Source: Actinomycetes bacterium (GTDB lineage Bacteria; Actinomycetota; Actinomycetes; Prado026). From it: a stretch of 64,000 nt of DNA. Position numbers and translations under genes: made by a program. The DNA lies in NCBI GenBank assembly GCA_038210415.1, contig JBBQWS010000001.1, positions 11,200-75,199 on the forward strand, given 5' to 3'. The notes beneath the pieces are model-generated. The model was not told where the DNA came from. It saw nothing but the letters and a program-made list of their open reading frames with translations, and searched no databases. This document shows, one piece after another, positions 4,225 through 60,580 of this stretch (its first letter is position 1; the number at the start of each line of letters is the position of its first letter).

Positions 4225-5795
4225 GCACCGACCTTCCCGTGGTCACCGACATCCCGGTGGGCGACGCCGCTTCGACCCGCGCCGTCGAGGCGCTGATGCC
4301 GTACGACGAGGTGGTTCGTACCTTTGACCCCGTCCTCGGCCTGGAGGTCCACGTCGAGCTCGGCACCGCCACCAAGATGTTCTGCGGCTGCCCGACCGAG
4401 TTCGGTGCCGAGCCGAACACCCAGGTCTGCCCGACCTGCCTGGGACTGCCCGGCTCGCTCCCGGTCGTCAACGCGGTCGCCGTCGAGTCGGCCATCCGGA
4501 TCGGCCTCGCCCTCAACTGCGACATCGCCGAGTGGTGCCGGTTCGCGCGAAAGAACTACTTCTATCCGGACATGCCGAAGAACTACCAGGTGTCGCAGTA
4601 CGACGAGCCGATCGCCACCAACGGGTACCTCGACATCGAGGTGCCCACCCCAGACGGCCCGCGATCGTTCCGGATCGAGATCGAGCGTGCCCATATGGAG
4701 GAGGACACCGGCAAGACCTCCCACCTGGGCAGCGACACCGGACGCATCCTCGGCGCCGACTACTCCCTGGTCGACTACAACCGGGCGGGCATCCCGCTGA
4801 TCGAGGTGGTCACCAAGCCGATCGCTGGCATCGGTGAGCTCGCACCCGACGTCGCGAAGGCGTACGTCGGCGAGCTGCGCGCGCTGATGCAGGCCCTCGG
4901 CGTCTCCGACGCGCACATGCACCAAGGCTCGCTGCGCTGCGACGTGAACCTCTCGCTGCGGTCGTCCCCCGATGCCCCTCTCGGCACCCGGTCCGAGACC
5001 AAGAACGTCAACTCGCTGCGCTCGGTCGAGCGGGCCACCCGGTTCGAGATGCAGCGGCACGCCGCGCGGCTCGCTGCGGGGCTGTCGATCGTCCAGGAGA
5101 CCCGGCACTGGAGCGAGGCGCTGGGCAGCTCGAGCTCGGGTCGCAGCAAGGAGCAGGCTGAGGACTACCGCTACTTCCCCGAGCCCGACCTCGTGCCAGT
5201 CGCACCCTCCCGGGAGTGGGTGGCCGAACTCGCCGAGACGCTGCCCGAGCTGCCCTCGGCCCACCGTCGGCGCCTGCAGGCCGACTGGGGTCTGACCGAC
5301 CTCGAGCTGAGCGCTGCGGTGAACGCCGGCGCGTTGGGGCCGATCGAGGCGACGGTGGCTGACGGCGCCGACGCGGCAGCGGCCCGCAAGTGGTGGCTCG
5401 GCGAGCTGTCGCGGCTGGCGAACGAGCGGGGCGTCGATGTCGGCGACCTGCCGATCTTCCCGCGCGACGTCGCCCGGGTCATCGCGCTGGTCGACTCCGG
5501 CGCGCTGACCGACAAGCTGGCCCGACAGGTCGTCGAGGGGGTCCTCGCGGGTGCGGGCTCGCCCGACGAGGTCGTCGCCGCCCGCGGGTTCAAGGTCGTG
5601 AGCGACGACGGGCCGTTGCTGGCCGCCATCGATGCGGCTATCGCCGCGAACCCCGACGTGACGGCGAAGATCCTCGACGGCAAGGTGGCCGCGGCCGGAG
5701 CGATCATCGGTGCCGTGATGAAGGCCACCGGTGGCCAGGCCGACGCGGCCAAGGTCCGCGAGCTGCTCCTCAACAGGCTCGGCCTCACCCCCTAA
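4221..5795 (+). CDS. gatB: Asp/Glu-tRNA(Asn/Gln) amidotransferase subunit B
   Basis: 524 aa with [23 protein letters not shown] and a C-terminal GatB/YqeY region. GTGA overlap with gatA. Confidence 0.95.
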
Positions 5796-16210: not shown

Positions 16211-19200
16211 TCAGCCGGCGTTGATGACCCGGATCCGGTGGTTGTTCCGGTCGGCGATCCACAGGTTGCCGGCCGCGTCGAGCGCCGTGGCAGCGGGTCG
16301 CTGCCAGGTGGAGAACGTCGCCGGTCCGCCGTCGCCGAGATAGCCGAACTGTCCGGTGCCGGCGAGTGTGGAGATCAGACCGTCGGAGACGAGCCGGACG
16401 CGGTCGTTGTTGACCTCGCTGATCAGCAGGTCGCCGTTGGGCAGGAACTCCAGGTAGTTCGGCTTGTGCAGGCCGGCCTGGTTGGCTGGTCCGCCGTCGC
16501 CGTTGGCCGTCGCGATGCCGATGCCAGCGAAGGTGTTGATGGTGCCGTCGGACGTCACGACCCGGACCCGCTCGTTGTCGTAGTCGGCGATGTACAGGTT
16601 GCCGGCGGCGTCGAGCGCCACGCTGTACGGGTTGAACAACCGGGCCGACGTCGCGGCGATGGCGTCACCGTTGTACCCGCTGGTTCCGTTGCCCGCGACG
16701 GTACTGATGATCCCCGCCGGGCTGACCTTGCGGATCCGCTGGTTGGCCCGGTCGGCGATGTAGAGCGAGCCGTCCGGTGCGGGGAACACGTCGTACGGCG
16801 TCTTGAGCCGCGCCGCGGTGGCCGGGCCCCCGTCACCGGAGAACCCGGCGACGCCGCTGCCGACGACCGTCGTGATGACGCCGCTGGTGCTGATCTTGCG
16901 GATCTTGTTGTTGCCCGAGTCGGCGACGAACAGGTTGCCGGCGGCGTCGAACGCGATCCGGGCCGGGGCGTTCAGCCGCGCCGCCGTGGCAGGTCCGCCG
17001 TCGCCGGTCGAGCCCGCGACGCCGGTTCCGGCGACGGTCGTGACCACTCCGGTTGAGCTCATCTTGCGGATCGAGTGCAGGTTGGTATCGGTGAAGTACA
17101 CCTCGCCGGCCGCGCTGATCGCCAGGCCCCAGTTCTGGTTCATACCGATGGCCGTGCCCTGCTGGCCGTCGCCGGAGTACGTCGACGAGCCGCTGCCGAC
17201 CGCGGTCCACAGCATGTTCTTTCCGCAGCCGGACGAGGTGTACGCCGCTGCCCGGTCGAACAAGGTGTACTGCTGGGCGGTGAAGCTGGTCGAGAGTGCA
17301 CCGGAGAAGTAGACCCGGCAGTCGGGCGCCGTGCTGCCGTCGGCCATCACGGCACCCGGCTGGTATGCGAACTCGGTCGACTGGCCGGGTGCGGTCTCCT
17401 GGATGGAGGCGGCGTTTGCCCCGGGCGTGGCCCAGTAGGCGGTCTTGGCGTTGCCGTTGACCGTGACCGTGCCGCTCAGGTCCGCAGCGAGCGGGTGCAC
17501 CGGCTTCGCGATCGTCGCCGTCGTCACCGGGCCGAGGTTCTGACCGGCGACCGTCGACATGCCGAGCTCGTCGAGCACGCGGTTGCGCAGGACGAGCATG
17601 GGGGTGTCGACCGCCTTGAGCTGGCCCACCTTGGCTTCGACGACCGACCCGCCCACGATCACCAGGGCCTGGTTCGCCAGGGTCGCGGGGGTGATCGAGT
17701 TGTCGTCGATCGTGGTGATGTTGTAGCTCTTCGCCAGCCGAGTCCGCAGGCTGGTCTCGGACGCGGTCAGCAGCGTGGTGTCGTGCACGACCATGAGTGC
17801 CGGCACGCCGCTCGGCGGCGGCAGGATCGTGATGCTCGCCGAGCCGTTGGACGTGACGTTGCCGATGGCGGTGGACGCCTGGGAGCTGAACGAGAACGAG
17901 GGCTTGGACCCGACGTCGCCGCTGACCGGCAGGGTCAGGTGGCAGTAGACCAGCTTGTTCGGCTGGATCGTCACGGGCAGCCCGCACTGCGACGACAGGT
18001 CGCCGTACTGCGGGCTGGTCAGGGTGTTGACTGTGATCGGGTTGCGGATGTCGATGTTGAGGAACGATGCGCCGTACTGCACGTTGCCGGTCGGGTAGGT
18101 GACCGTCCACGGACCGGACGCGAGCCGGAGCCGGTAGGTCGGTGCGCTGGTGAGCACCTGGACGTCGGACGTGTCGGAGGCGGTGATGATCCCGACTCCG
18201 TTGTTCGCCGTCGCCGTGGCGGTCGATGTGACGTCCGCGAGAGCTGCTCCGTTGACCTGGTCGGTGACCGAGCAGGTGTACGAGGAGCTGGCCGCGATGG
18301 TCTGCGGCACGCTACAGGTGCCTTGGCCGTTCAGGTCTCCGAGGCGCTGGTCGGACAACGTGTTCAGCGTCACGCTGCGGTCGGAGTAGGTGTTCATCAC
18401 CCGCACCGAGAAGGTGACCGGCTGTCCGGGCGAGAGCACCCAGGGGGTCGCGGTCTGCTTGCGGATCTCGATGCCCGGCGCGGGAGCCGGGAAGAACCCG
18501 AACCGGCCGTGCGCGACGCCGCCCATGGTGTCACCGTCGCTGCCGACGTAGATGCCAGACGGCAACGACTTGATCACCTTGACGCCGAGGAACCCCCCGG
18601 CGTTGGGCTCCCAGTTGAGGCTGCTGCCCGTGGCGGGGTCGAGCACCGCGAGCTGGAAGTGCTTCTGGGTCGCCGTCTCGGTCTCGATGTAGCGGAAGTG
18701 ACCACCGATGTAGACGCCGGTGCCGGTGGCCGCGACGGCCTCGATCGTGTCACCGATCTTTGTGCTCCAGTTGGGCTTCACGTCCGGGCCGGTGCCGTTC
18801 ATCGGGAAGGAGTTCGCCGTGTCACAGGCGGGGTAGTAGATGTGGCCGGAGCTCACGACGTACGCCGTCGTCCCGTCCGGGGAGATGTCGACGTCACGCA
18901 TCCAGCCCTTGCGACCGCGGGCGCACGGCTGGTTGTAGACCTCGGTGCGCCACGAGGTCACGGCGGCGGGGTGTTGCGAGATGTCGATCTGGGCGATCAG
19001 CGGGCGGTCTGCGCCGCCGATCGTCGCGAAGTTGCCGATCACCATGAGCTTGGTCTGGTCGGGTGACAGCGCGAGCGCCCGGCCGCCGCCCTCGGACGCG
19101 TCGTTGGTCGGGTCGGTGAGCGGGAGGTTGAAGTCGTTCATCGTCGCGCCGGTGCTGGGGTCGACCGCGGCGAGCTTCTTCATCGGTGCGCCGTTGATGT

Positions 19201-20809
19201 TGTCGAAGTTGCCGGTGACGTAGACGGCGCTCGAGGTGACCTCGAGGTCCTTGACGTACGAGTCGGGGGACGGGTCGAAGGTCGGGTCGACGGTGCCGTC
19301 GGCGATCGACAGCTTGGCCAGGTTGCGCCGGCTGACTGCGCCGATGGTGGTGTAGGCGCCGCCGACGTAGACGGACGTGCCGTCGACGCTGCCGCGGACG
19401 GCGTAGATCGTGTCGCCGTCCGGTGCGGGGTTCCAGGCCAGGTCGAGCGCGCCGGTGGCGAGGTCGTACGCCAGCAGGTGGTTGCGGGTGACCAGGCCGT
19501 AGTCGGAGAAGTCGCCGCCGACGAACAACGAGCTGCCGACGTGGGCAAGTGCGAGCGCACCGCTCGTGCCACCGACCGGCGTGCGGGCCAGCGACTTCGG
19601 CGTGGCCTGGTAGGGGATCAGCGCGGCGACTGCGCTCGTCGCGACGGTGACCTTGGCGATGACCTTGGGCGCCGTGCGCTCGGGGAGCAACGAGAAGCTG
19701 CCGGCGATGTCGATGACGCCGGTGCTGTCCAGGGCGATCGAGGCGACGGTGCCGGAGATCGTCGGCAGGGTCAGCGCACCGACCGCGCCGGTGCCGGTGT
19801 TGACCGCAGCCAGGTTGACCCGCGCCAACGCCCCGACCGTGCTGAACGGGCCGGCGACGTACATCGTGCTCGCCGACGGGTCGACGACCAGCGTGTTGAT
19901 GTGACCGTTGACGGCGAGCGACAGCGGGTCGAGGGCCCCGGTGGTGCCGTCGACCTTGGCGAGCCGGGTACGGGTGATGCCGCCAAGCTTGGTGAAGTCG
20001 CCGCCGATCCACAGGCTCGTGCCGTCGACCGCCAACGCGCTGACGGGCTGGTTGGCCGACCCCGGCAGGAAGTTGGTGCTACGCAGACCGCTCGCGGTCA
20101 CGATCGCGCCGATGCGGGCCTGGGCGTTCGAGCCGGCCAACGACGTGAAGGCCCCGCCGACGTAGAGGGTCGCGCCGTCGGTCGAGAGCGCGATGGTCTG
20201 GACGGCTCCGCCGGTGGCCTGCGCGTCCCAGAGGATGGCGCCCGTCGTGCGGTCGAGCTTGGCTGCGCCGACGGCTGGTGCCCCGCCGACGGTCGTGAAG
20301 CCACCACCGACGTAGACCGCACCTGCGTCGACGGCGAGCGACCGGACGACCCCGTTGGTGTTCGGTGCCCAGGCGGTGACCGCCCCGGCGGCGTCGACGG
20401 CGGCGAGGTTGGAGCGGGCCTGGCTGCCTACGCTGGTGAAGCTGCCGCCGATGATCCAGCCGCCGCTGCCGTCGGGGACGACCGCGTTGACGCTGCCGAC
20501 GACGTCGGGGAACCCGGTGCCGAACTGGCCCGACCCGAGGCCGACCACGCCGGCCGCGCCGCGCTGGCCGGGGCCGACCTTGGTGAAGTCGCCACCGACG
20601 ACGATCTTCGAGCCGATCTGGCCGACCGCCAGCGTGTGACCGTCGACGATCGAGATCGTCTGGTCGCTGGGTCGCGGGCTCACACGGCCGATCTGCGGCG
20701 CGCCGTCGGCGTGCGCGACCACTGGTACGCCCACGGCCAGGGAGCCGAGGACGGCGGTCGTGGCCACAGCGACGGTGAGCTTGGATCGGCGGATCGAACG
20801 GCGGATCAT
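16211..20809 (-). CDS. Large secreted multi-domain protein: signal peptide, long beta-propeller repeat region, two Ig-like domains, an alpha/beta domain, and a six-bladed NHL-repeat propeller
   Basis: 1532 aa. N-terminus MIRRSIRRSKLTVAVATTAVLGSLAVGVPVVAHADG. About 14 units of GGxFTxxGGxxRxxLAxxDxxTGA (DUF5122/delta-60-like). The C-terminal region (approx 16214-17221) has 6 NHL units such as AAGNLFVADSGNNKIRKIS and AAGNLYIADYDNERVRVV. Confidence 0.85.
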   Translation of the reverse strand: MIRRSIRRSKLTVAVATTAVLGSLAVGVPVVAHADGAPQIGRVSPRPSDQTISIVDGHTLAVGQIGSKIVVGGDFTKVGPGQRGAAGVVGLGSGQFGTGFPDVVGSVNAVVPDGSGGWIIGGSFTSVGSQARSNLAAVDAAGAVTAWAPNTNGVVRSLAVDAGAVYVGGGFTTVGGAPAVGAAKLDRTTGAILWDAQATGGAVQTIALSTDGATLYVGGAFTSLAGSNAQARIGAIVTASGLRSTNFLPGSANQPVSALAVDGTSLWIGGDFTKLGGITRTRLAKVDGTTGALDPLSLAVNGHINTLVVDPSASTMYVAGPFSTVGALARVNLAAVNTGTGAVGALTLPTISGTVASIALDSTGVIDIAGSFSLLPERTAPKVIAKVTVATSAVAALIPYQATPKSLARTPVGGTSGALALAHVGSSLFVGGDFSDYGLVTRNHLLAYDLATGALDLAWNPAPDGDTIYAVRGSVDGTSVYVGGAYTTIGAVSRRNLAKLSIADGTVDPTFDPSPDSYVKDLEVTSSAVYVTGNFDNINGAPMKKLAAVDPSTGATMNDFNLPLTDPTNDASEGGGRALALSPDQTKLMVIGNFATIGGADRPLIAQIDISQHPAAVTSWRTEVYNQPCARGRKGWMRDVDISPDGTTAYVVSSGHIYYPACDTANSFPMNGTGPDVKPNWSTKIGDTIEAVAATGTGVYIGGHFRYIETETATQKHFQLAVLDPATGSSLNWEPNAGGFLGVKVIKSLPSGIYVGSDGDTMGGVAHGRFGFFPAPAPGIEIRKQTATPWVLSPGQPVTFSVRVMNTYSDRSVTLNTLSDQRLGDLNGQGTCSVPQTIAASSSYTCSVTDQVNGAALADVTSTATATANNGVGIITASDTSDVQVLTSAPTYRLRLASGPWTVTYPTGNVQYGASFLNIDIRNPITVNTLTSPQYGDLSSQCGLPVTIQPNKLVYCHLTLPVSGDVGSKPSFSFSSQASTAIGNVTSNGSASITILPPPSGVPALMVVHDTTLLTASETSLRTRLAKSYNITTIDDNSITPATLANQALVIVGGSVVEAKVGQLKAVDTPMLVLRNRVLDELGMSTVAGQNLGPVTTATIAKPVHPLAADLSGTVTVNGNAKTAYWATPGANAASIQETAPGQSTEFAYQPGAVMADGSTAPDCRVYFSGALSTSFTAQQYTLFDRAAAYTSSGCGKNMLWTAVGSGSSTYSGDGQQGTAIGMNQNWGLAISAAGEVYFTDTNLHSIRKMSSTGVVTTVAGTGVAGSTGDGGPATAARLNAPARIAFDAAGNLFVADSGNNKIRKISTSGVITTVVGSGVAGFSGDGGPATAARLKTPYDVFPAPDGSLYIADRANQRIRKVSPAGIISTVAGNGTSGYNGDAIAATSARLFNPYSVALDAAGNLYIADYDNERVRVVTSDGTINTFAGIGIATANGDGGPANQAGLHKPNYLEFLPNGDLLISEVNNDRVRLVSDGLISTLAGTGQFGYLGDGGPATFSTWQRPAATALDAAGNLWIADRNNHRIRVINAG

Positions 20810-54300: not shown

Positions 54301-54906
54301 GGCCGGGTCAACCCGCTGGCGCTGGAGGAGTTCGCTGCGCTCGAGGAACGGCACCAGTTCCTCACCGAGCAGCTCGAGGACCTCAAGAAGACGCGTCGCG
54401 ACCTGCTCGACATCATCAAGGACGTCGACGAGCGCGTGGAGCAGGTCTTCACGGCCGCCTACCACGACACCGCCCGCGAGTTCGAAGGCGTCTTCGCGCG
54501 GCTGTTCCCCGGCGGTGAGGGACGGCTGGTGCTCACCGACCCGTCGGACATGCTCAACACGGGCATCGAGGTCGAGGCGCGCCCACCGGGCAAGAAGGTC
54601 AAGCGCCTGTCACTGCTCTCGGGCGGGGAGCGGTCACTCGTCGCAGTGGCCCTGCTGGTGGCGATCTTCAAGGCCCGGCCGAGCCCGTTCTACGTGATGG
54701 ACGAGGTCGAGGCGGCGCTCGACGACACCAACCTGGGCCGGTTGCTGGGCCTTCTGGAAGAGCTGCGCGAGTCGTCCCAGCTCATCGTCATCACGCACCA
54801 GAAACGCACCATGGAGATCGCCGACGCCCTCTACGGCGTCTCCATGCGCGGCGACGGCGTCACTACGGTCATCAGCCAGCGGCTGCGCGAGGAGCAGCCC
54901 GCCTGA
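51334..54906 (+). CDS. smc: Chromosome segregation protein SMC
   Basis: 1190 aa with FKSF...GPNGSGKSN (Walker A), long coiled coils, a hinge, LSGGE and a Walker B near the C-terminus. Confidence 0.96.
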   Translation: MHLKSLTLRGFKSFASSTTLRFEPGITCVVGPNGSGKSNVVDALAWVMGEQGAKSLRGGKMEDVIFAGTAGRPPLGRAEVVLSIDNTDGALPVEFAEVTISRIMFRNGGSEYAINGDPCRLLDVQELLSDSGIGREMHVIVGQGQLDQVLSATPEDRRGFIEEAAGVLKHRKRKEKALRKLEAMQANLTRITDLTGELRRQLKPLGKQAEVARRAQVVQADLRDARLRLLADDLVTMRSTLQQEVADETALRERRARVEAASVGARQREAELEADVAEHSPRLAAAQEVWYRLAGVRERLRATQGLAGQRLRILATEPDDDRTGSDPDDLDAAAASARAEEQSLIAQVEADSVRLAAAVSARTRAEAALVAEERRVTSAERAAADRREGLARLSGQVAAARSRLETRTAEIDRLSTTLAEARSRAGNAQRDFTALESQVAGLDEGEVDLDSEHAAAAAAFDDAEQSVTRLREAEREAERERAGLIARKEALEMGLARKDGAGAVLAAGDRLSGVLGTVAALLTIRPGYEAAVAAALGSAADAVAVDGLDSAVGALRLLKADDAGRAPLVVAGGPATTATASLAASITLPAQAVPAADLVDAPSGLRPGLARLLGRTVVVDGVDDARALVARHPDLVAVTRQGDVLGVDFAHGGSASLPSLLEVQAAVDDAGARLEAAAAQAERLRTDLVRVTAQRQRASERVEAALVRLHESDARMAAVAEQLGQLGAAARAAVGEAERTAAALTVAEAARADDENSLTELDTRLRAAVASPVDDEPTVDDRDALAVAASNARQSEVEVRLSVRTGEERARALGGRAESLERAASDERSARERAAARRERRIRELAVAGAVARGAEHALLRIEGSLIAAAGERSAAELARTEVDAELLSVRAQARELAGELDQLTSSVHRDEVARAEQRLRIEALETKVLDDYGVEGDVLVDEYGPDQLVPASIPVPGAEEAAAEEPVPYVRAEQDKRARAADRDLALLGRVNPLALEEFAALEERHQFLTEQLEDLKKTRRDLLDIIKDVDERVEQVFTAAYHDTAREFEGVFARLFPGGEGRLVLTDPSDMLNTGIEVEARPPGKKVKRLSLLSGGERSLVAVALLVAIFKARPSPFYVMDEVEAALDDTNLGRLLGLLEELRESSQLIVITHQKRTMEIADALYGVSMRGDGVTTVISQRLREEQPA

Positions 54907-55011
54907 CCTGCGGTGACAAGGTTCGACCCGGTCGCGGCTAACGCCCGGATAACCACCTTTCGCACGGTCTGCGCGGGCTGCACAGTGGAGTTCTCACCTA
55001 CAGGAGGACCC

Positions 55012-55491
55012 ATGAGGCGTTCCCGCCGAATCGCACTATCGACCGCAGTGACCACCGGCGTGCTCGGTGTCGCAGGGGTGGCCGTGGCGGTCGTCCCGTC
55101 AGCCGTCCTGGCCGCGTCGCCGTCGTCGACCACTCCGTCGACGAGCACCGACGAGTCGGCCGCGCAGGAGGATGCGCTCCGGGTGGCCCTCGGCCAGCTC
55201 GACGGTCGCACGCTCTCGCTCGAGAAGGACCTGACCGCGGCGCAGCGCCAGCTGGCCGCCGCTCGGGCGGCCGCTGCGGCCGCCGAAGCAGCAGCCCAAG
55301 CCGGCGGCAACTCGCAGCGTCCTGCCTCGAAGCCGCAGCAGGCCCGCAGCCAGGCCCGCAAGGTCATCTACGTCCACGCGCCGGCGCCCAAGGTAACCAA
55401 GGTGACCAAGCCGCCGACGCACACCACCACGGGCGCCAGCGGGGCGAGCGGCGGCGACGACAGCGGCGAGGGCGGCGGCACCGATGACTGA
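55012..55491 (+). CDS. Small exported protein A (159 aa) with a Tat-like signal, a coiled coil and the C-terminal PPTHTTTGASGA motif
   Basis: AGGAGG at 55002-07. N-terminus MRRSRRIALSTAVTTGVLGVAGVAVAVVPSAVLAAS. The tail KPPTHTTTGASGASGG contains the [ST]GA[ST] core. Confidence 0.7.
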   Translation: MRRSRRIALSTAVTTGVLGVAGVAVAVVPSAVLAASPSSTTPSTSTDESAAQEDALRVALGQLDGRTLSLEKDLTAAQRQLAAARAAAAAAEAAAQAGGNSQRPASKPQQARSQARKVIYVHAPAPKVTKVTKPPTHTTTGASGASGGDDSGEGGGTDD

Positions 55492-55966
55492 GCTTCGCGG
55501 GCGTACCGCCCGGTGGTCCGCGGCAGCGCTGGCGGCCCCGGTGGTGGCGTCGCTGTTCGCCGGCACCACCGCCTGGGCCGTCCACCACGACCCGCTGCAC
55601 CCGGACGGCGCGGCATCGGCGACTGCGGCCACCCCGGCCAAGCTCGTCGCGCCGTCGGCGGACCCCACGCTGGTTGCGCTTCGCGCCGCACTCCTGGCCA
55701 ACGCCAAGAAGGTCGACGCGCTGAGCAAGCAGGTCGCAGGCGTGCGGGCCCAGGCCGCAGCCATGGCGAAGGGCACTTCGTCGGCCCGGCGCAGCACCTA
55801 CAGCGGTTCCGGTAGCTCATACCGTTCGTCCGGCTCCTCGAACTCGTCCAGCTCGAGCCGGTCGAGCGGCGGCGGGAACCAGTCGCCGATCGTGGTGACC
55901 ATCCCGGCTCCGGCCGCTCCGCCGCCCACCCACACCACGACAGGTGCGTCCGGGGCCGTCCGGTGA
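55484..55966 (+). CDS. Small exported protein B (160 aa), paralogue of A, ending in PPTHTTTGASGAVR
   Basis: N-terminal hydrophobic segment with AWA. Same central helix and Ser-rich linker layout as A. The tail motif is identical to A. 8-nt overlap with A and GTGA overlap with apbE. Confidence 0.7.
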   Translation: MTELRGRTARWSAAALAAPVVASLFAGTTAWAVHHDPLHPDGAASATAATPAKLVAPSADPTLVALRAALLANAKKVDALSKQVAGVRAQAAAMAKGTSSARRSTYSGSGSSYRSSGSSNSSSSSRSSGGGNQSPIVVTIPAPAAPPPTHTTTGASGAVR

Positions 55967-56991
55967 CCGGGATCCCGACGACCGGCGCCGCGTCGTCGAC
56001 GCCGGTCGTCGGGATCCTTCGCACGGTCACGCCGGATGTCGTCGCCAGCTTTCGGGCGATGGCCTCCGAGATCAACGTGCGGGTCGTCCGCCCGCGGCCC
56101 GGCGCTGCGGAGGCGGTCTGCCTCGCGGAGGACGTCTTCCACCGGGTCGAGAGGGCCTGCACGAGGTTCGACCCCGGCTCGCCGCTCATGCGGGCCAACG
56201 CGGCGCCGGGGCAGTGGCACCAGGTGCCTTCGGAGCTGTACGAGACCCTGATCGAGGCTGCCGCCGCCCATGCGATCACCGCCGGAGTGTTCGACCCACG
56301 GGTCCTTCGGGTCCTGGAGTCGTTCGGCTACGACCGTTCGCTGCCGTTCGGCGACGAGCCGGTCGAGTTGTCAGGGGCTTTGGCGCCGGGCCGGCACCGT
56401 CGCTCTGCCGCGGGTGGGCGAGCGGGTTGGGATCCGCACTTCGACGAGCCCTCTCGGTCGGTCTGGCTCGGCCCCGAGCCGGTCGACCTGGGGGGGATCG
56501 GCAAGGGGATCGCCGTCCGTTGGGCCACCGAGGCCCTGACCGGCGCGGGGGAGTCGACGCTGGTCGAGGCCGGTGGAGACTGCGCGGCCGTGGGCTCCGG
56601 ACCCGACGGCGACGGTTGGAAAGTCGGCGTGCAGGACCCCCGTGAGGGGGACGACCCCCTCGCGGTGCTCTCGCTCACCGACCGGGCCTGCGCGACGTCC
56701 TCGATCCGCCTTCGCCGTTGGCGGGCCGGCGGGCGCCAGGTGCACCACCTGATCGACCCGCGCACCGGTGAACCCGGCGGCGAGGGCCTGGCTGCGGTCA
56801 CCGTGGTGCACGACGACCCGGCCCTCGCCGAGGTCTGGAGCAAGTCGTTGTTCCTCGCCGGGCTGGACGGCATCGCCGACCGCGCGGCCGAACGCGGACT
56901 CGCCGCCCTGTGGGTGGCGCCCGACGGTTCGCTCGACCTGAGCGACTCGATGCGATCGATGGTCATCTGGAGGTACGACGGTGTCAGCTAA
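55963..56991 (+). CDS. apbE: FAD:protein FMN transferase (ApbE family)
   Basis: 342 aa. FRAMASEINVRV, FDPGSPLMRAN, AGVFDPRV, DLGGIGKGIAV and HHLIDPRTG follow the ApbE pattern. I see no obvious signal peptide or lipobox. Confidence 0.8.
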   Translation: MTGIPTTGAASSTPVVGILRTVTPDVVASFRAMASEINVRVVRPRPGAAEAVCLAEDVFHRVERACTRFDPGSPLMRANAAPGQWHQVPSELYETLIEAAAAHAITAGVFDPRVLRVLESFGYDRSLPFGDEPVELSGALAPGRHRRSAAGGRAGWDPHFDEPSRSVWLGPEPVDLGGIGKGIAVRWATEALTGAGESTLVEAGGDCAAVGSGPDGDGWKVGVQDPREGDDPLAVLSLTDRACATSSIRLRRWRAGGRQVHHLIDPRTGEPGGEGLAAVTVVHDDPALAEVWSKSLFLAGLDGIADRAAERGLAALWVAPDGSLDLSDSMRSMVIWRYDGVS

Positions 56992-57736
56992 CCGGGTCTC
57001 GACCCACCGAGAGTCGACGCATCGGGCGGCGGCGATCCCGGTCGACGACCGCCGCACCGTCGTCGAGCGGTTGGTCGCGATCGGCCGGGGCGTACTGCTC
57101 ACCCTGGGCGTCGCAGTCAGCACTGCGGTCACCGCGTGGATGATCGGCCGGGGCGTGCTGGCCGTGGCCGGTAACAAGCAGGCACCCTGGATCCTCGGTC
57201 GGGCCGCCGGCGTGACGTCCTACCTGCTCCTGGTCGGCCTCGTCGGGTTCGGACTGGTGCTCTCGCACCCGTGGCGAAGCCGGGTCACCTGGCCCAGCAC
57301 CGCCACCCGGATCCGGATCCACGTGAGCCTGGCGGTCTTCACCCTCGCGTTCCTGGTCCTGCACATCGTCGTGCTGGCCACCGACTCGTACGCGGGCGTG
57401 GGCCTGCGCGGTGCGTTGCTGCCGATGGGCGCTTCGTACCGTCCGGTCCCGGTCACGCTCGGGGTCATCGGCGCGTACGCGGGCCTGCTCGCGGGCGTCA
57501 CCGCCGCGATGGCTGGCCGCGTCACCGCGCGCATCTGGTGGCCGATCCACAAGGTGGCGGCGGTGTCGTTGGTGCTGGTGTGGGTGCACGGTCTGCTCGC
57601 CGGAAGTGACAGCCCTGCGCTGCTCGCGCTGTACGTCGCGACGGGGCTGGCCGTCGCTGCCTTGGCCGTGAGCAGGTACGCAGCGAGGACGCCGGCCGAC
57701 CGGGTCGCCGAGCTCACCGAAGGAGTCGACCGATGA
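56981..57736 (+). CDS. Ferric-reductase-like (FRD/MsrQ-like) 6-TM membrane protein, putative bis-haem b
   Basis: Six hydrophobic helices. Intramembrane His pairs at IHVSLAVFTLAFLVLH and IHKVAAVSLVLVWVH. Confidence 0.75.
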   Translation: MSANRVSTHRESTHRAAAIPVDDRRTVVERLVAIGRGVLLTLGVAVSTAVTAWMIGRGVLAVAGNKQAPWILGRAAGVTSYLLLVGLVGFGLVLSHPWRSRVTWPSTATRIRIHVSLAVFTLAFLVLHIVVLATDSYAGVGLRGALLPMGASYRPVPVTLGVIGAYAGLLAGVTAAMAGRVTARIWWPIHKVAAVSLVLVWVHGLLAGSDSPALLALYVATGLAVAALAVSRYAARTPADRVAELTEGVDR

Positions 57737-59073
57737 CCGGGGTGCCCTACCTCGTTCGGGCGACGACCCCGCCGACGGCACCAGCCGTCGGCGGACTCGA
57801 CGGGCGGCTGCTCGGCAGCCCGGTCACCTTCGACCTGCGGACGCGCGAGCACCCCGTGGGCGGCGTGCGGCACGACCTGGCCGACCACCTGGCGGCATTC
57901 GGGTCGCGCCCGTCCGCCGTCGGTCACCACGGCGACGAGCTGCTCGAGATCTTGCAGGACCTCGCGCTGACCGGTCGCGGCGGCGGGCACTTCCCGGTGG
58001 CGACGAAGTGGCGGGCCGCGCTGGGCGCAGGGGGCGGTGGCACGGTCGTGGCGAACGGCGCCGAGGGCGAACCGGCGAGCGCGAAGGACGCCACGTTGCT
58101 GCAGCTCCGGCCGCACCTGGTGCTCGACGGGCTGGCGCTGGCCGCCGAGACGATCGGTGCGGACGACGCGGTCGTCTGGCTGCACGAGGGCGATGTCGCG
58201 ACCCACCGTTCAGTCGCGCTGGCGCTGGTGGAGCGGCGCGCCGCGGGCGCGAGCGGCACACCCGTCCGCATCGCGACCGGCCCGGACCGGTACCTCTCCG
58301 GCGAGGCCAGCGCGGTCGTACGCGCCCTCGGCGGTGGCCCGGCTCTGCCCTACCTCGAACGCCGCCCTGCCGCGATCGAGGGCATCGGCGGGCTCCCCAC
58401 CGTCGTGCACAACGCCGAGACCATGGCGCGGGTCGCTCTGGCCGCCCGCACCGGGTCGGACGACGGCGACGCCGTCACCGGTGGGACGCTGCTCACCGTC
58501 GTGGGGCCGGACCGTCGGGTCGTGCTCGAGGCCGACCGTGACCAGACGATCGGCGCGATCATCAGCGAGGTGCTCGGTGGGTCCGAGCGCGTGCGACCAC
58601 CGGCGGCCGTCCTGGTCGGGGGTTTCGGCGGCAGCTGGTTGCCCTGGTCGACGCTCGCACCGCTCGCACCAACCGAACCCGCCTTGCGGGGCGTCGGCGC
58701 ATCGCTCGGAGCCGGGCTGCTGATCCCGTTGGCTTCCGGCGGCTGCGGTCTGTCCGAGACCGCCGCTGTGCTGCGTTACCTGGCTGCGTCGTCGGCCCGG
58801 CAGTGCGGGCCGTGCCTGTTCGGCCTGCCCGCCATGGACGAGCTCGTCACCTCGATCGCCGAGGGGTCGGCGAAGCGCTCCGACGTGCGCCAGCTGGAGC
58901 GGTTCATGGCCCAGATCGATCGTCGCGGCGCGTGCCACCACCCGGACGGTGCGCTGCGCATGGTCCGATCGGCGTTCGCCGTGTTCGCGGACGACCTGCA
59001 GCGACACCTGAAGGACGGCCCGTGCCCGGGGGCGCTGCACCAGCCGTCCATCCCAGTCCCGGAGGTGCACTGA
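57733..59073 (+). CDS. NuoF-like NAD(P)H-oxidising flavo/iron-sulfur protein
   Basis: GRGGGHFPVATKW, ANGAEGEPASAKD, YLSGEASAV and PTVVHNAET (51-kDa subunit fold), an SLBB-like segment, and a C-terminal Fe-S region QCGPC...GACHHPDG...GPCPG. Confidence 0.8.
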   Translation: MTGVPYLVRATTPPTAPAVGGLDGRLLGSPVTFDLRTREHPVGGVRHDLADHLAAFGSRPSAVGHHGDELLEILQDLALTGRGGGHFPVATKWRAALGAGGGGTVVANGAEGEPASAKDATLLQLRPHLVLDGLALAAETIGADDAVVWLHEGDVATHRSVALALVERRAAGASGTPVRIATGPDRYLSGEASAVVRALGGGPALPYLERRPAAIEGIGGLPTVVHNAETMARVALAARTGSDDGDAVTGGTLLTVVGPDRRVVLEADRDQTIGAIISEVLGGSERVRPPAAVLVGGFGGSWLPWSTLAPLAPTEPALRGVGASLGAGLLIPLASGGCGLSETAAVLRYLAASSARQCGPCLFGLPAMDELVTSIAEGSAKRSDVRQLERFMAQIDRRGACHHPDGALRMVRSAFAVFADDLQRHLKDGPCPGALHQPSIPVPEVH

Positions 59074-59074
59074 G

Positions 59075-59329
59075 ATGATCCGCGTTCCGCTGGGACCGGC
59101 CGCCCGTACGACGACCGCCCCTGCACCGGCTGCAGCGCCGCCGAGGCTACGGGTGGACCCTGTCCGGTGTGACGGCATCGGGATCTGCGCCCACCTCGCG
59201 CCGCAGATCGTAACCGTCGACTCCTGGGGCTACCCGATCATCGCTTCCGCGCCGCTGGACCGCCGGTCCCGGCGGCGGGCGGAGTCTGCCGTGTCGGCCT
59301 GCCCGCGCAAGGCGCTCTTCATCGCCTAG
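59075..59329 (+). CDS. Small single-cluster ferredoxin
   Basis: 84 aa with VDPVRCDGIGICAHLAPQIV...SACPRKAL (CxxxGxC...CP pattern). The start lies 1 nt after the upstream stop. Confidence 0.75.
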   Translation: MIRVPLGPAARTTTAPAPAAAPPRLRVDPVRCDGIGICAHLAPQIVTVDSWGYPIIASAPLDRRSRRRAESAVSACPRKALFIA

Positions 59330-59353
59330 CGCGGGCAGTCGCCTCGCGCTCGA

Positions 59354-60580
59354 CTACCCGACGAGGGCCGGTCGCATCGTCGTGCCGACCTCGGCGAGGT
59401 GCCGGCGGATCGCCAGCGCCGCCGCAGCGCCCTCGCCCGCAGCCGAGGCGGCCTGCTTCGTCGAGCCGGAGCGGACGTCGCCGGCCGCGAACAGGCCCTT
59501 CTGTGAGGTCTGCAGCCCGACGTCGGTGACCACGAACCCTGCGAGGTCCACGTCGACGAGGTGAGAGACCAGCTCTGCGTTCGGCGTCAGGCCGATGAAA
59601 ACGAAGACGCCATCCGGGTGGAGCTCGGTGCGTTCGCCGGTCACGGTGTTCTGGACGGTGACTCCGGAGAGCTTTCCCTCGCCGGAGAACTCGACCGGCG
59701 CCGAATGTGTCAGCACTGACATCTGCGGGTGCGCCTCGATCTTGTCGACCACGACCTTCGACGCGGAGAGCGCGGCGTCGCGGGTCACGAGGGTGACAGT
59801 GCGAGCGAACTTGGTGAGGAAGATGCCCTCCTCGCCGGCGGAGTTGCCGCCGCCGACGACGAGGACGTCGCGGTCGCGGTAGAACGCGCCGTCGCACGTC
59901 GCGCAGAAGTGGATGCCGGCACCGATGAAGTCGGCCTCGCCGGGGACGTCGAGCCGGCGATACGTCGAACCGGTCGCCACCAGGACGGCGGCAGCCCGGT
60001 AGACCTCTCCGTCACCGGTGGCGACGTCCCAGGCGTCGCCTTCGGGTTCGATGCCGGTGACCTGCTGGGCCGAGAGGATCTCGACTCCGAACCGCTCCGC
60101 CTGGGCGCGTAGGCGGGCCGCGAATTCATCGCCGGTGACGCCTTCGGGGAAACCGGGAAAGTTGTCGAGCCGCTCGGTGACCGCAGCCTGGCCGCCGACC
60201 CCGCCGCGTTCGATCACCAGGGTGTCGATCCCCTCGCGCGCGGCGTACAGCGCAGCAGTCAGACCGGTGGGCCCGGACCCGACGACGATCAGGTCGTAGT
60301 AGTGCTGCCGCGCAATCGTCTGTAGCCCGAGCTGGGCTGCGAGCTCGGCGTTGGAGGGCTCCACGAGGACGTCGCCGCCGGGGAAGACGATGGTGGGGAT
60401 GATCGTCTTGCCGTCGTTGTGCGCCTCGACCACGGCGCGGCCTTCTTCGTCACCGTCGACGTCGACGAAGCGGTACTTCACTCGTTGTTCCGCGAAGAAC
60501 TGCTTGGCCCGCTTGCAGTCGCCGCACCAAACGGTGCCGTACATGACGATCTCGGCCGACGTTTCGTGGTCCTGGGGCAC
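59354..60580 (-). CDS. Glutaredoxin/NrdH-like domain fused to a thioredoxin-reductase-type flavoprotein
   Basis: N-terminus: VMYGTVWCGDCKRAKQFF. Then YDLIVVGSGPTGLTAALYAARE, the redox centre HFCATCDG and GGGNSAGEEG. The HRRxxxR NADPH motif is degenerate (VTLVTRDAALSAS). Confidence 0.8.
   Translation of the reverse strand: MPQDHETSAEIVMYGTVWCGDCKRAKQFFAEQRVKYRFVDVDGDEEGRAVVEAHNDGKTIIPTIVFPGGDVLVEPSNAELAAQLGLQTIARQHYYDLIVVGSGPTGLTAALYAAREGIDTLVIERGGVGGQAAVTERLDNFPGFPEGVTGDEFAARLRAQAERFGVEILSAQQVTGIEPEGDAWDVATGDGEVYRAAAVLVATGSTYRRLDVPGEADFIGAGIHFCATCDGAFYRDRDVLVVGGGNSAGEEGIFLTKFARTVTLVTRDAALSASKVVVDKIEAHPQMSVLTHSAPVEFSGEGKLSGVTVQNTVTGERTELHPDGVFVFIGLTPNAELVSHLVDVDLAGFVVTDVGLQTSQKGLFAAGDVRSGSTKQAASAAGEGAAAALAIRRHLAEVGTTMRPALVG

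Follow-up and report, generated by a model that had tools for sequence, protein, structure and literature searches.

The window analyzed in this study, a stretch of 64,000 nucleotides (nt) from contig JBBQWS010000001.1 of an Actinomycetes bacterium, contains a module of six genes on the forward strand, which encode two small unannotated proteins (here referred to as A and B), an ApbE homologue, a membrane protein, a NuoF-like protein and a ferredoxin, in this order and with consecutive genes overlapping or abutting at their stop and start codons. Flavinylation by ApbE is a widespread bacterial route for carrying electrons beyond the cytoplasm, and the catalogue of its substrates has been built from Pfam domains. 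A and B share a short peptide near their C-termini, and judging from sequences, structural models and analogy with known systems they are most likely acceptors of ApbE. The module type has been noted before, though not dissected; what is new here is a candidate class of substrates without a fold for a known modification.

Gene A (55012–55491, 159 amino acids, ATG start) begins 105 nt past the SMC gene, which ends at 54906, and a Shine-Dalgarno-like AGGAGG can be read directly within this gap at 55002–55007. Gene B (55484–55966, 160 amino acids, ATG start) shares its first 8 nt with the end of A. The third-position GC content (0.86 in A and 0.86–0.87 over the pair) is as high as in the neighbouring genes. 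An earlier sequence-only reading of this DNA had reported an identical 12-residue tail in both proteins, and upon re-reading the DNA we indeed find PPTHTTTGASGA at codons 134–145 of A (55411–55446; ccg ccg acg cac acc acc acg ggc gcc agc ggg gcg) and at codons 147–158 of B (55922–55957; ccg ccc acc cac acc acg aca ggt gcg tcc ggg gcc). Eight of the 12 codons (2, 3, 6, 7, 8, 9, 10 and 12) differ, all synonymously, as had been claimed. The same is true of the serine at the same peptide position, encoded by AGC in A (55438–55440) and by TCC in B (55949–55951); these are the predicted acceptors, Ser143 and Ser156. The T-G-A-S that ends on them was correctly recognized as the [S/T]-G-A-[S/T] core of flavinylation sites, and it is kept in the family with a hydroxyl residue at the acceptor position. 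Two points of that reading need amendment. The word “tail” is right for B, in which the motif lies 2 residues before the end, but not for A, in which 14 acidic residues (SGGDDSGEGGGTDD, 55447–55488) come after it. Likewise, the canonical Asp is absent from position −6 (the acceptor being position 0) as stated, but its replacement is His in both proteins, not “His/Thr”. Outside the peptide A and B are as divergent as described, with about 30% identity in a multiple alignment, and pairwise BLASTP recovers only TGASGA. Nevertheless, the A-family and B-family profiles are homologous across the helix and the tail according to hhalign (probability 96.4%, E 1.2e-9; the B alignment did not include A itself). 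Paralogy of A and B forms part of the joint reading that is weighed below.

We searched genomes with the ApbE protein and obtained 48 loci, which yielded 54 non-redundant tails from the genes upstream of apbE. B-type ends read [H/Q/N]-T-T-T-G-A-S-G with 0–4 residues after it, while in A-type ends H-T-T-T-G-A-S-G leads into an acidic stretch of Gly/Asp/Glu, often rich in His, that closes with DD. The predicted acceptor is Ser in 54 of 54 tails and is reached through both codon families (TCN 39, AGY 15), which bears out the earlier proposal of selection on the tail. At position −1 there are 48 Ala and 6 Gly, at −2 there are 44 Gly, 8 Lys and 2 Gln, and at −3 there are 51 Thr and 3 Ser; position −6 is mostly His (22), Gln (18) or Asn (7). 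Some lineages have their own variants of the core, namely T-K-A-S (Actinotalea, Cellulomonas, Propionibacteriales), T-G-G-S ending the protein, T-R-G-S, T-Q-A-S and T-E-A-S (loci L021, L022, L015, L029, L024, L026, L028, L036, L031, L005, L010, L011 and L012). Since Thr at −3 and the Ser stay fixed while the rest of the core varies, these sequences suggest co-evolution of the tail with the cognate ApbE.

A profile search of the B family against 1.84 billion representative proteins found 235 clusters, 99 of them with E<=1e-10. The profile took in the tail, which introduces some bias, but most of the score (50–175 bits) comes from the N-terminal segment and the helix. A C-terminal [H/Q/N/D]-x-x-T-G-A-S is present in 142 of 161 B-family proteins, the remainder being mostly truncated or false matches. 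Among these 142 tails the acceptor is Ser in 138 and Thr in 4, Thr occupies −3 in 137, the −6 residue is H in 53, Q in 45, N in 16 and D in 13, and in 49 proteins the acceptor Ser is the very last residue. In the A family, with 7 independent homologues, P-x-T-H-T-T-T-G-A-S-G and the terminal DD are invariant in all eight members. The linkage to apbE holds in both directions. In the 48 ApbE-seeded loci, a strict motif near the end of an open reading frame (ORF) was found only directly upstream of apbE, and B homologues found by protein search alone have apbE directly after them and an A-type gene before; where one contig ends past B, only the 5' fragment of a gene follows. The bare [ST]GA[ST] lies in the last 30 residues of 32 of 436 ORFs in the 1.8-kb upstream zone versus 25 of 4276 background ORFs, an enrichment of about 12-fold. 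In the window, read in six frames, the extended motif [HQN]xx[ST]GA[ST]G occurs in A and B only. No conserved motif-like site was found among the loci in ApbE, the membrane protein, the NuoF-like protein or the ferredoxin. A substrate site hidden elsewhere in the module was considered and rejected; of its candidates, MGAS lies in the outer loop of the membrane protein and AGASG in the NuoF-like protein, and neither is kept as a motif-like site. The interpretation offered by the sequence-only reading is therefore supported on every point at which it could be refuted in silico: the motif is conserved in orthologues, it is linked to apbE, and it keeps Ser or Thr at the predicted acceptor.

Other forms of tail occur as well. 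In distant Acidimicrobiia/Microthrix-type loci a Pro-rich protein upstream of apbE has another conserved tail, either C-[T/S]-G-S-[T/K]-C-[G/P], with the site between two cysteines, or T-G-[A/P]-S-H-P (L040 4153–4908, L043 4288–4968, L039 3856–4968 and L046 4069–4908). In Alicyclobacillus tolerans (L044, 4490–4924) the gene upstream of a leaderless apbE has N-T-G-A-S-G-S-Y in a linker, followed by what by eye looks like a PepSY-type domain, and judging from its sequence this protein could be a relative of the tail proteins that has a domain. Finally, the B gene of L020 (4251–4974) is apparently frameshifted: a 68-residue C-terminal fragment has the motif and the N-terminal part lies in the apbE frame, probably because of an assembly or long-read error.

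We then turned to the architecture of the two proteins. A consists of an Arg-rich N-terminus, a hydrophobic signal or anchor, a coiled-coil-like heptad helix, a low-complexity linker, the motif and the acidic Gly/Asp-rich tail ending in DD, while B has an N-terminal hydrophobic segment ending in AWA, a helix (61–100), a Ser/Gly-rich linker and the motif. The conserved Leu/Ala residues of A at 56, 60, 70, 74, 77, 81 and 84 follow 3-4 heptad spacing. In the AlphaFold model of B there is a signal or anchor helix, the only confident helix is 61–100 (predicted local distance difference test, pLDDT, 81–89), no secondary structure follows residue 100 and no globular domain is seen. The linkers of A- and B-type proteins vary greatly among species in length and composition, and after the motif there are 0–6 residues (B type) or the acidic Gly/Asp tail (A type). 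In Pfam, A and B had no match better than E 0.01 and none that was relevant, and NCBIfam gave none at all; known flavinylated domains (FMN_bind PF04205, NqrB/RnfD, DUF2271, DUF3570, Flavodoxin_4 and FMN_red) had no significant match in either. The earlier suggestion of a disordered context in place of an FMN_bind fold is thus in keeping with the databases and with the B model. A sortase-type sorting signal (LPXTG or similar, consisting of motif, hydrophobic helix and basic tail) was looked for in A and B and is absent from both.

As read from the sequences, both N-termini have an Arg-rich stretch, then about 20 hydrophobic residues, then acidic residues, and by the positive-inside rule this would place the N-terminus inside and the remainder outside. 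A and B therefore look exported or anchored with their bulk outside. The hydrophobic segment of B is unusually conserved (W11, P19, F25, T29 and W31, then D36-P37), which suggests a role beyond that of a cleaved leader.

Both proteins also have features reminiscent of metal sites. In B, residues 32–38 (55577–55597) include A-V-H-H-D-P, so that cleavage after A-W-A would give an X-X-His N-terminus, a site like the amino-terminal Cu(II)/Ni(II)-binding (ATCUN) motif; His is present at this position in 75 of the 134 family members with a recognizable site, and D-P comes next almost invariably. A-type tails are acidic, often rich in His/Asp/Glu, and end in DD or a similar pair, for example EHEDHDEDDKGEDHDEDGDDD; besides the window (55447–55488) such tails were seen in loci L003, L007, L008, L013, L032, L049 and L050. 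The A-type protein of L052 (7077–7595) has lost the TGAS motif, and its expanded tail comprises some 70 residues rich in Asp/His/Glu. By its composition, the A-type tail looks like a metal-binding tail beside a putative flavin.

The gene directly downstream of B was correctly named apbE by the sequence-only reading. It lies at 55963–56991, its GTG start overlaps the stop codon of B (GTGA), so that B and apbE are translationally coupled, and its product matches Pfam PF02424 over the full length of the family (residues 34–316, E 7.7e-49) and solved ApbE/Ftp structures with E down to 1e-25. The clade has the signature HHLIDPxTG...AEVWSK, and all loci keep the segment HHLIDPRTG, which contains the proposed catalytic His. 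We checked for leaders in the window (55963–56050) and at about 4950–5100 of loci L001–L048. The ApbE domain starts at residue 34, and the 28 residues ahead of it are not hydrophobic and show neither a signal peptide nor a lipobox. None of the loci shows a signal peptide or lipobox either: the N-terminal extension is 1–28 residues and lacks a hydrophobic stretch, in many loci an in-frame stop leaves only 1–20 extra residues, and in most a signal peptide is not possible. From these sequences, the ApbE of the module appears to be a cytoplasmic clade paired with substrates that look exported. Cytosolic ApbEs are known to exist (review PMC12052999).

The fourth gene (56981–57736) encodes a membrane protein of 251 amino acids, assigned here as a six-helix ferric-reductase/MsrQ-like protein, in which PF01794 serves as the operational definition of “MsrQ-like”. 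The window protein itself is below the reporting level of Pfam, and a sequence search of solved structures gave nothing relevant. It has more than 870 homologues, and about half of the close ones (60–84% identity) have a precomputed PF01794 (Ferric_reduct) match, weak or faint in some. The invariant His residues form the two-haem pattern H114-x13-H128 and H190-x12-H203. An H-x13-H / H-x12-H bis-haem pattern on helices 3 and 5 is found in NOX and FRE proteins. The AlphaFold model (mean pLDDT 76) has six long helices of membrane length plus short ones, and a fold search with it ranked the NOX5 transmembrane domain first, with E 0.3 and TM-score 0.36–0.46. As this match is weak, the assignment rests on PF01794 in the homologues together with the histidine pattern. 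A predicted outer loop (D135–P155, 57383–57445), DSYAGVGxRGALLPMGA[S/T]YRP, hardly varies among close homologues, and the model is poor there (pLDDT <50 at residues 147–154). Over all loci, its MGA[S/T] is not kept as a flavinylation-like motif; the loop is a candidate docking site for the flavin tails. Like NOX, FRE and STEAP proteins, the module has six helices and a bis-haem His pattern, and, as in them, a cytoplasmic nicotinamide-nucleotide donor would feed an outside acceptor. It differs from them in having no fused FAD/NADPH dehydrogenase domain, as the input would come through the separate NuoF-like and ferredoxin proteins, and in that the output would go to a putative tethered flavin.

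The NuoF-like protein (57733–59073) is predicted to be the cytoplasmic electron-input module, with binding sites for reduced nicotinamide adenine dinucleotide (NADH), flavin mononucleotide (FMN) and a 4Fe-4S cluster; it matches PF01512 (E 6e-27), PF10589 (E 6e-17) and, under the equivalog cut-off, TIGR01959 (E 3.6e-39). The last gene (59075–59329) encodes a small single-cluster ferredoxin (PF13459 Fer4_15, E 2e-9), whose position is kept across loci. The order ApbE, membrane protein, NuoF-like protein and ferredoxin is found in about 35 of the 48 fetched loci, mostly from Actinomycetota, and the carriers include Nanopelagicales, Propionibacteriales, Kineosporiaceae, Frankiaceae, Cellulomonas/Actinotalea and Acidimicrobiia. 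The order is different in Chloroflexia and in one Bacillota metagenome-assembled genome (MAG), where no genes of the module were found beyond those for the tail protein(s), ApbE and the membrane protein. A-type genes lie upstream of B in many loci, and both motif-bearing paralogue types co-occur in Actinomycetota and in a Bacillota locus. Neither the window module, searched with Pfam and NCBIfam, nor the annotated neighbourhoods of its relatives contain an FMN_bind domain.

While the module is constant, its neighbours vary. They include two-component systems (three times), CopC/CopD/CtaG, a CsoR-type repressor with rhodaneses, a P-type ATPase with a hemerythrin domain and, in one locus, the protein mannosyltransferase Pmt. 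In two loci the module thus has copper-handling genes (CopC/CopD; a CsoR-like repressor) beside it. The wider ferric-reductase-domain (FRD) superfamily is known for ferric and cupric reductase activity. A metal-reducing role of the module is plausible, if weakly so, from these neighbours, the His/Asp/Glu-rich end of A and the activity of the FRD superfamily.

The combination of ApbE, an MsrQ-like protein and a NuoF-like protein has been described as a flavinylation-associated type with 31 clusters (PMC8238504, Meheust et al. 2021, eLife). The module resembles these clusters, as far as they can be matched by description, in its ApbE, its PF01794-type di-haem protein, its NuoF-like NADH module (PF10589) and its occurrence mainly in Actinobacteria, and electron export from NAD(P)H to an extracytosolic flavin has been proposed for them. 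However, these clusters typically have an FMN_bind (PF04205) substrate, in place of which we find two unannotated small proteins with a terminal motif; moreover, that survey took only ApbE and FMN_bind genes with a signal peptide, which the ApbE here does not have. In the same study DUF2271 and DUF3570 were spotted as ApbE substrates through [S/T]GA[S/T] beside orphan apbE genes and then confirmed experimentally, and according to the authors further substrates of orphan apbE genes are still to be identified (PMC8238504). Flavodoxin_4 and FMN_red were likewise found as ApbE substrates by a conserved motif, and an FMN reductase of Lactococcus is flavinylated on an unstructured C-terminal extension (PMC11334425). 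In all four, as in our case, an orphan apbE lies beside a gene that encodes a conserved motif, but there a folded domain binds or surrounds the flavin, whereas A and B have only a signal or anchor helix, one further helix and a disordered linker.

Another parallel is the engineered Flavin-tag (Tong et al. 2021; PMC12052999; PMC9400968), likewise a short peptide with the acceptor as its last residue, which performs best when placed at a protein terminus. It is synthetic and NqrC-derived (GVDGLSGATLTS or a 7-residue minimum), with Asp and Thr, whereas the tails here are natural, with His/Gln/Asn/Asp and Ser. A 7-residue terminal tag is enough for ApbE; changing the Asp to Ala has a minor effect, Gly-to-Ala and Ala-to-Val changes bring the yield down to about half, and Ser can serve as the acceptor, though not as well as Thr (review PMC12052999).

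Taking these results together, we propose that the tails of A and B are natural acceptors of ApbE, similar to the Flavin-tag, with FMN attached by a phosphoester bond to Ser143 and Ser156, and that they work in an electron-export chain; we put the probability of this reading at roughly 60%. A and B would be small envelope proteins made up of a signal or anchor helix, a helix of coiled-coil type, a flexible linker and a C-terminal [H/Q/N/D]-T-T-T-G-A-S-(G), and the downstream ApbE would move FMN from flavin adenine dinucleotide (FAD) onto the invariant Ser. The tails would thereby stand in for the folded FMN_bind domain that is usual with MsrQ-like systems. The NuoF-like protein, with its FMN and 4Fe-4S cluster, would oxidize NADH and pass the electrons to the ferredoxin, from which the inner and then the outer haem of the ferric-reductase-like protein would take them over the membrane. 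Outside, the tethered FMN on the tails of B and A would receive them and in turn reduce some external acceptor, which might be a metal ion bound to the acidic, His-rich tail of A.

Several points weigh against this proposal. First, ApbE is leaderless wherever its start is constrained, while A and B look exported, with their Arg-rich stretch, hydrophobic segment and AxA site; enzyme and mature substrate would hence be in different compartments unless modification precedes export. Second, the clade has A-E-V-W-S-K where two aligned solved ApbEs (from T. maritima and P. stutzeri) have A-D-x-L-S-T, and the segment with these Asp-to-Glu and Thr-to-Lys exchanges (56743–56860, residues ~261–300) is kept across Actinomycetota, Chloroflexia and more distant members. 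We take the Asp and Thr of A-D-x-L-S-T to be metal ligands. By a tentative mapping, the corresponding Asp of E. coli Ftp serves as a metal ligand (Ftp paper), and with Glu and Lys in this segment the chemistry of ApbE could differ. Third, the motif itself departs from the canonical one: the Asp at −6 is mostly replaced by His, Gln or Asn, the acceptor is nearly always Ser though the studied ApbEs favour Thr, −2 tolerates K, Q, E and R, and −1 tolerates G. Fourth, the motif is lost in one paralogue of some genomes, including the A-types of L052 and L031 and the B-type of L053, which ends in SSGS. Finally, a flavin on a bare tail would have no protective pocket in cis.

As for the compartments, the simplest reconciliation is that the tail is flavinylated while it is still unfolded and cytoplasmic, either ahead of Sec export or in the course of it, and we infer this timing as the most likely one since the ApbE clade has no leader peptide. 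Proteins as small as A and B are mostly exported post-translationally, and Sec is said to tolerate sizeable side-chain adducts. Another answer to the same puzzle, Tat export of a pre-modified protein, was rejected: the A protein of the window has twin arginines (MRRSRRIAL), but its A-type relatives show QR, SR, AR or GR instead and B has none, and because the twin arginines are not conserved this route is unlikely. A more specific form of the proposal can be put forward only tentatively. In it, the leaderless cytoplasmic ApbE would load FMN on the unfolded tail tag, Sec export would follow, and the tail, having no binding fold, would serve as a swinging-arm shuttle whose flavin, on its long linker, cycles between the outer haem and acceptors in or beyond the Gram-positive wall, a metal ion at the His/Asp-rich end of A being one possible acceptor.

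We next weighed explanations in which the tails are not flavinylated. One is that the tail stays unmodified and serves for docking, or that it receives a different envelope modification, for example O-mannosylation by Pmt on the Thr run; the tail would keep A and B at the ferric-reductase-like protein or in the wall, and ApbE would have another substrate, encoded elsewhere in the genome. The Thr-rich and Pro-rich context does resemble O-glycosylation regions of actinobacteria, a Pmt gene adjoins the module in one locus, the conserved outer loop D135–P155 could be a docking surface, and a leaderless ApbE is mismatched with an exported substrate. However, it is T-G-A-S rather than the Thr run that is invariant, with the single Ser as the most conserved residue; the link to apbE spans phyla and comes with overlapping stop and start codons; and Pmt adjoins the module in just one of the contexts examined, while no other candidate substrate was found in the module. 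We thus regard this explanation as unlikely.

It is more improbable still that the tail is recognized by the ApbE homologue, which adds a moiety other than FMN (e.g. adenosine monophosphate or another nucleotide-derived group) or merely binds or chaperones the tail. In favour of such an activity, A-E-V-W-S-K replaces the A-D-x-L-S-T of solved ApbEs throughout the clade, the protein scores 47.5 bits against a cut-off of 498 for the NCBIfam ApbE equivalog, and the motif is non-canonical at −6 and has a Ser acceptor. Yet HHLIDPxTG is kept together with the proposed catalytic His, the Pfam match to ApbE is full-length, and the redox context of NuoF-like protein, ferredoxin and di-haem protein calls for a redox cofactor outside; in addition, the family is not known to transfer any group other than a flavin, and the review PMC12052999 and the Ftp paper describe only FMN transfer and FAD hydrolysis. 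That the shared 12 residues merely reflect recent duplication, gene conversion or chance in low-complexity, high-GC sequence, with no special function, is almost certainly wrong: the genes are tandem and of low complexity, and [ST]GA[ST] stands at about 0.6% of ORF ends by chance, but recent conversion is ruled out by the eight differing codons, both motif-bearing paralogue types co-occur in Actinomycetota and a Bacillota locus, and the motif is kept in most of the divergent family members (142 of 161).

If the flavinylation of A and B is real, these proteins would represent a substrate class without a flavin-binding fold, a natural counterpart of the biotechnological Flavin-tag, and two unannotated genes would be given a role within a module found in MAGs of freshwater and soil Actinomycetota. 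Modification ahead of export would also explain why a minimal tag on a disordered tail takes the place of a folded FMN_bind domain, and neither FAD nor the enzyme would need to be exported any longer. This raises the question of whether a protein already flavinylated in the cytoplasm can be exported by Sec with its cofactor attached.

Three further observations concern the surroundings of the module. A promoter and terminator scan of 54700–59700 gave no sites, a result that says little for a high-GC actinobacterium. Convergent to the module, after the ferredoxin, a gene on the reverse strand (59354–60580) encodes what by eye looks like a glutaredoxin-like domain (WCGDC) fused to a thioredoxin-reductase-like flavoprotein; this gene is not conserved beside the module in other loci. 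Farther away, a reverse-strand ORF of 1532 amino acids (16211–20809) has a canonical D-P-S-T-G-A-T at residue ~550; by its size it may be a large subunit like that of glutamate synthase, and the match is probably a chance occurrence in a cytoplasmic enzyme.

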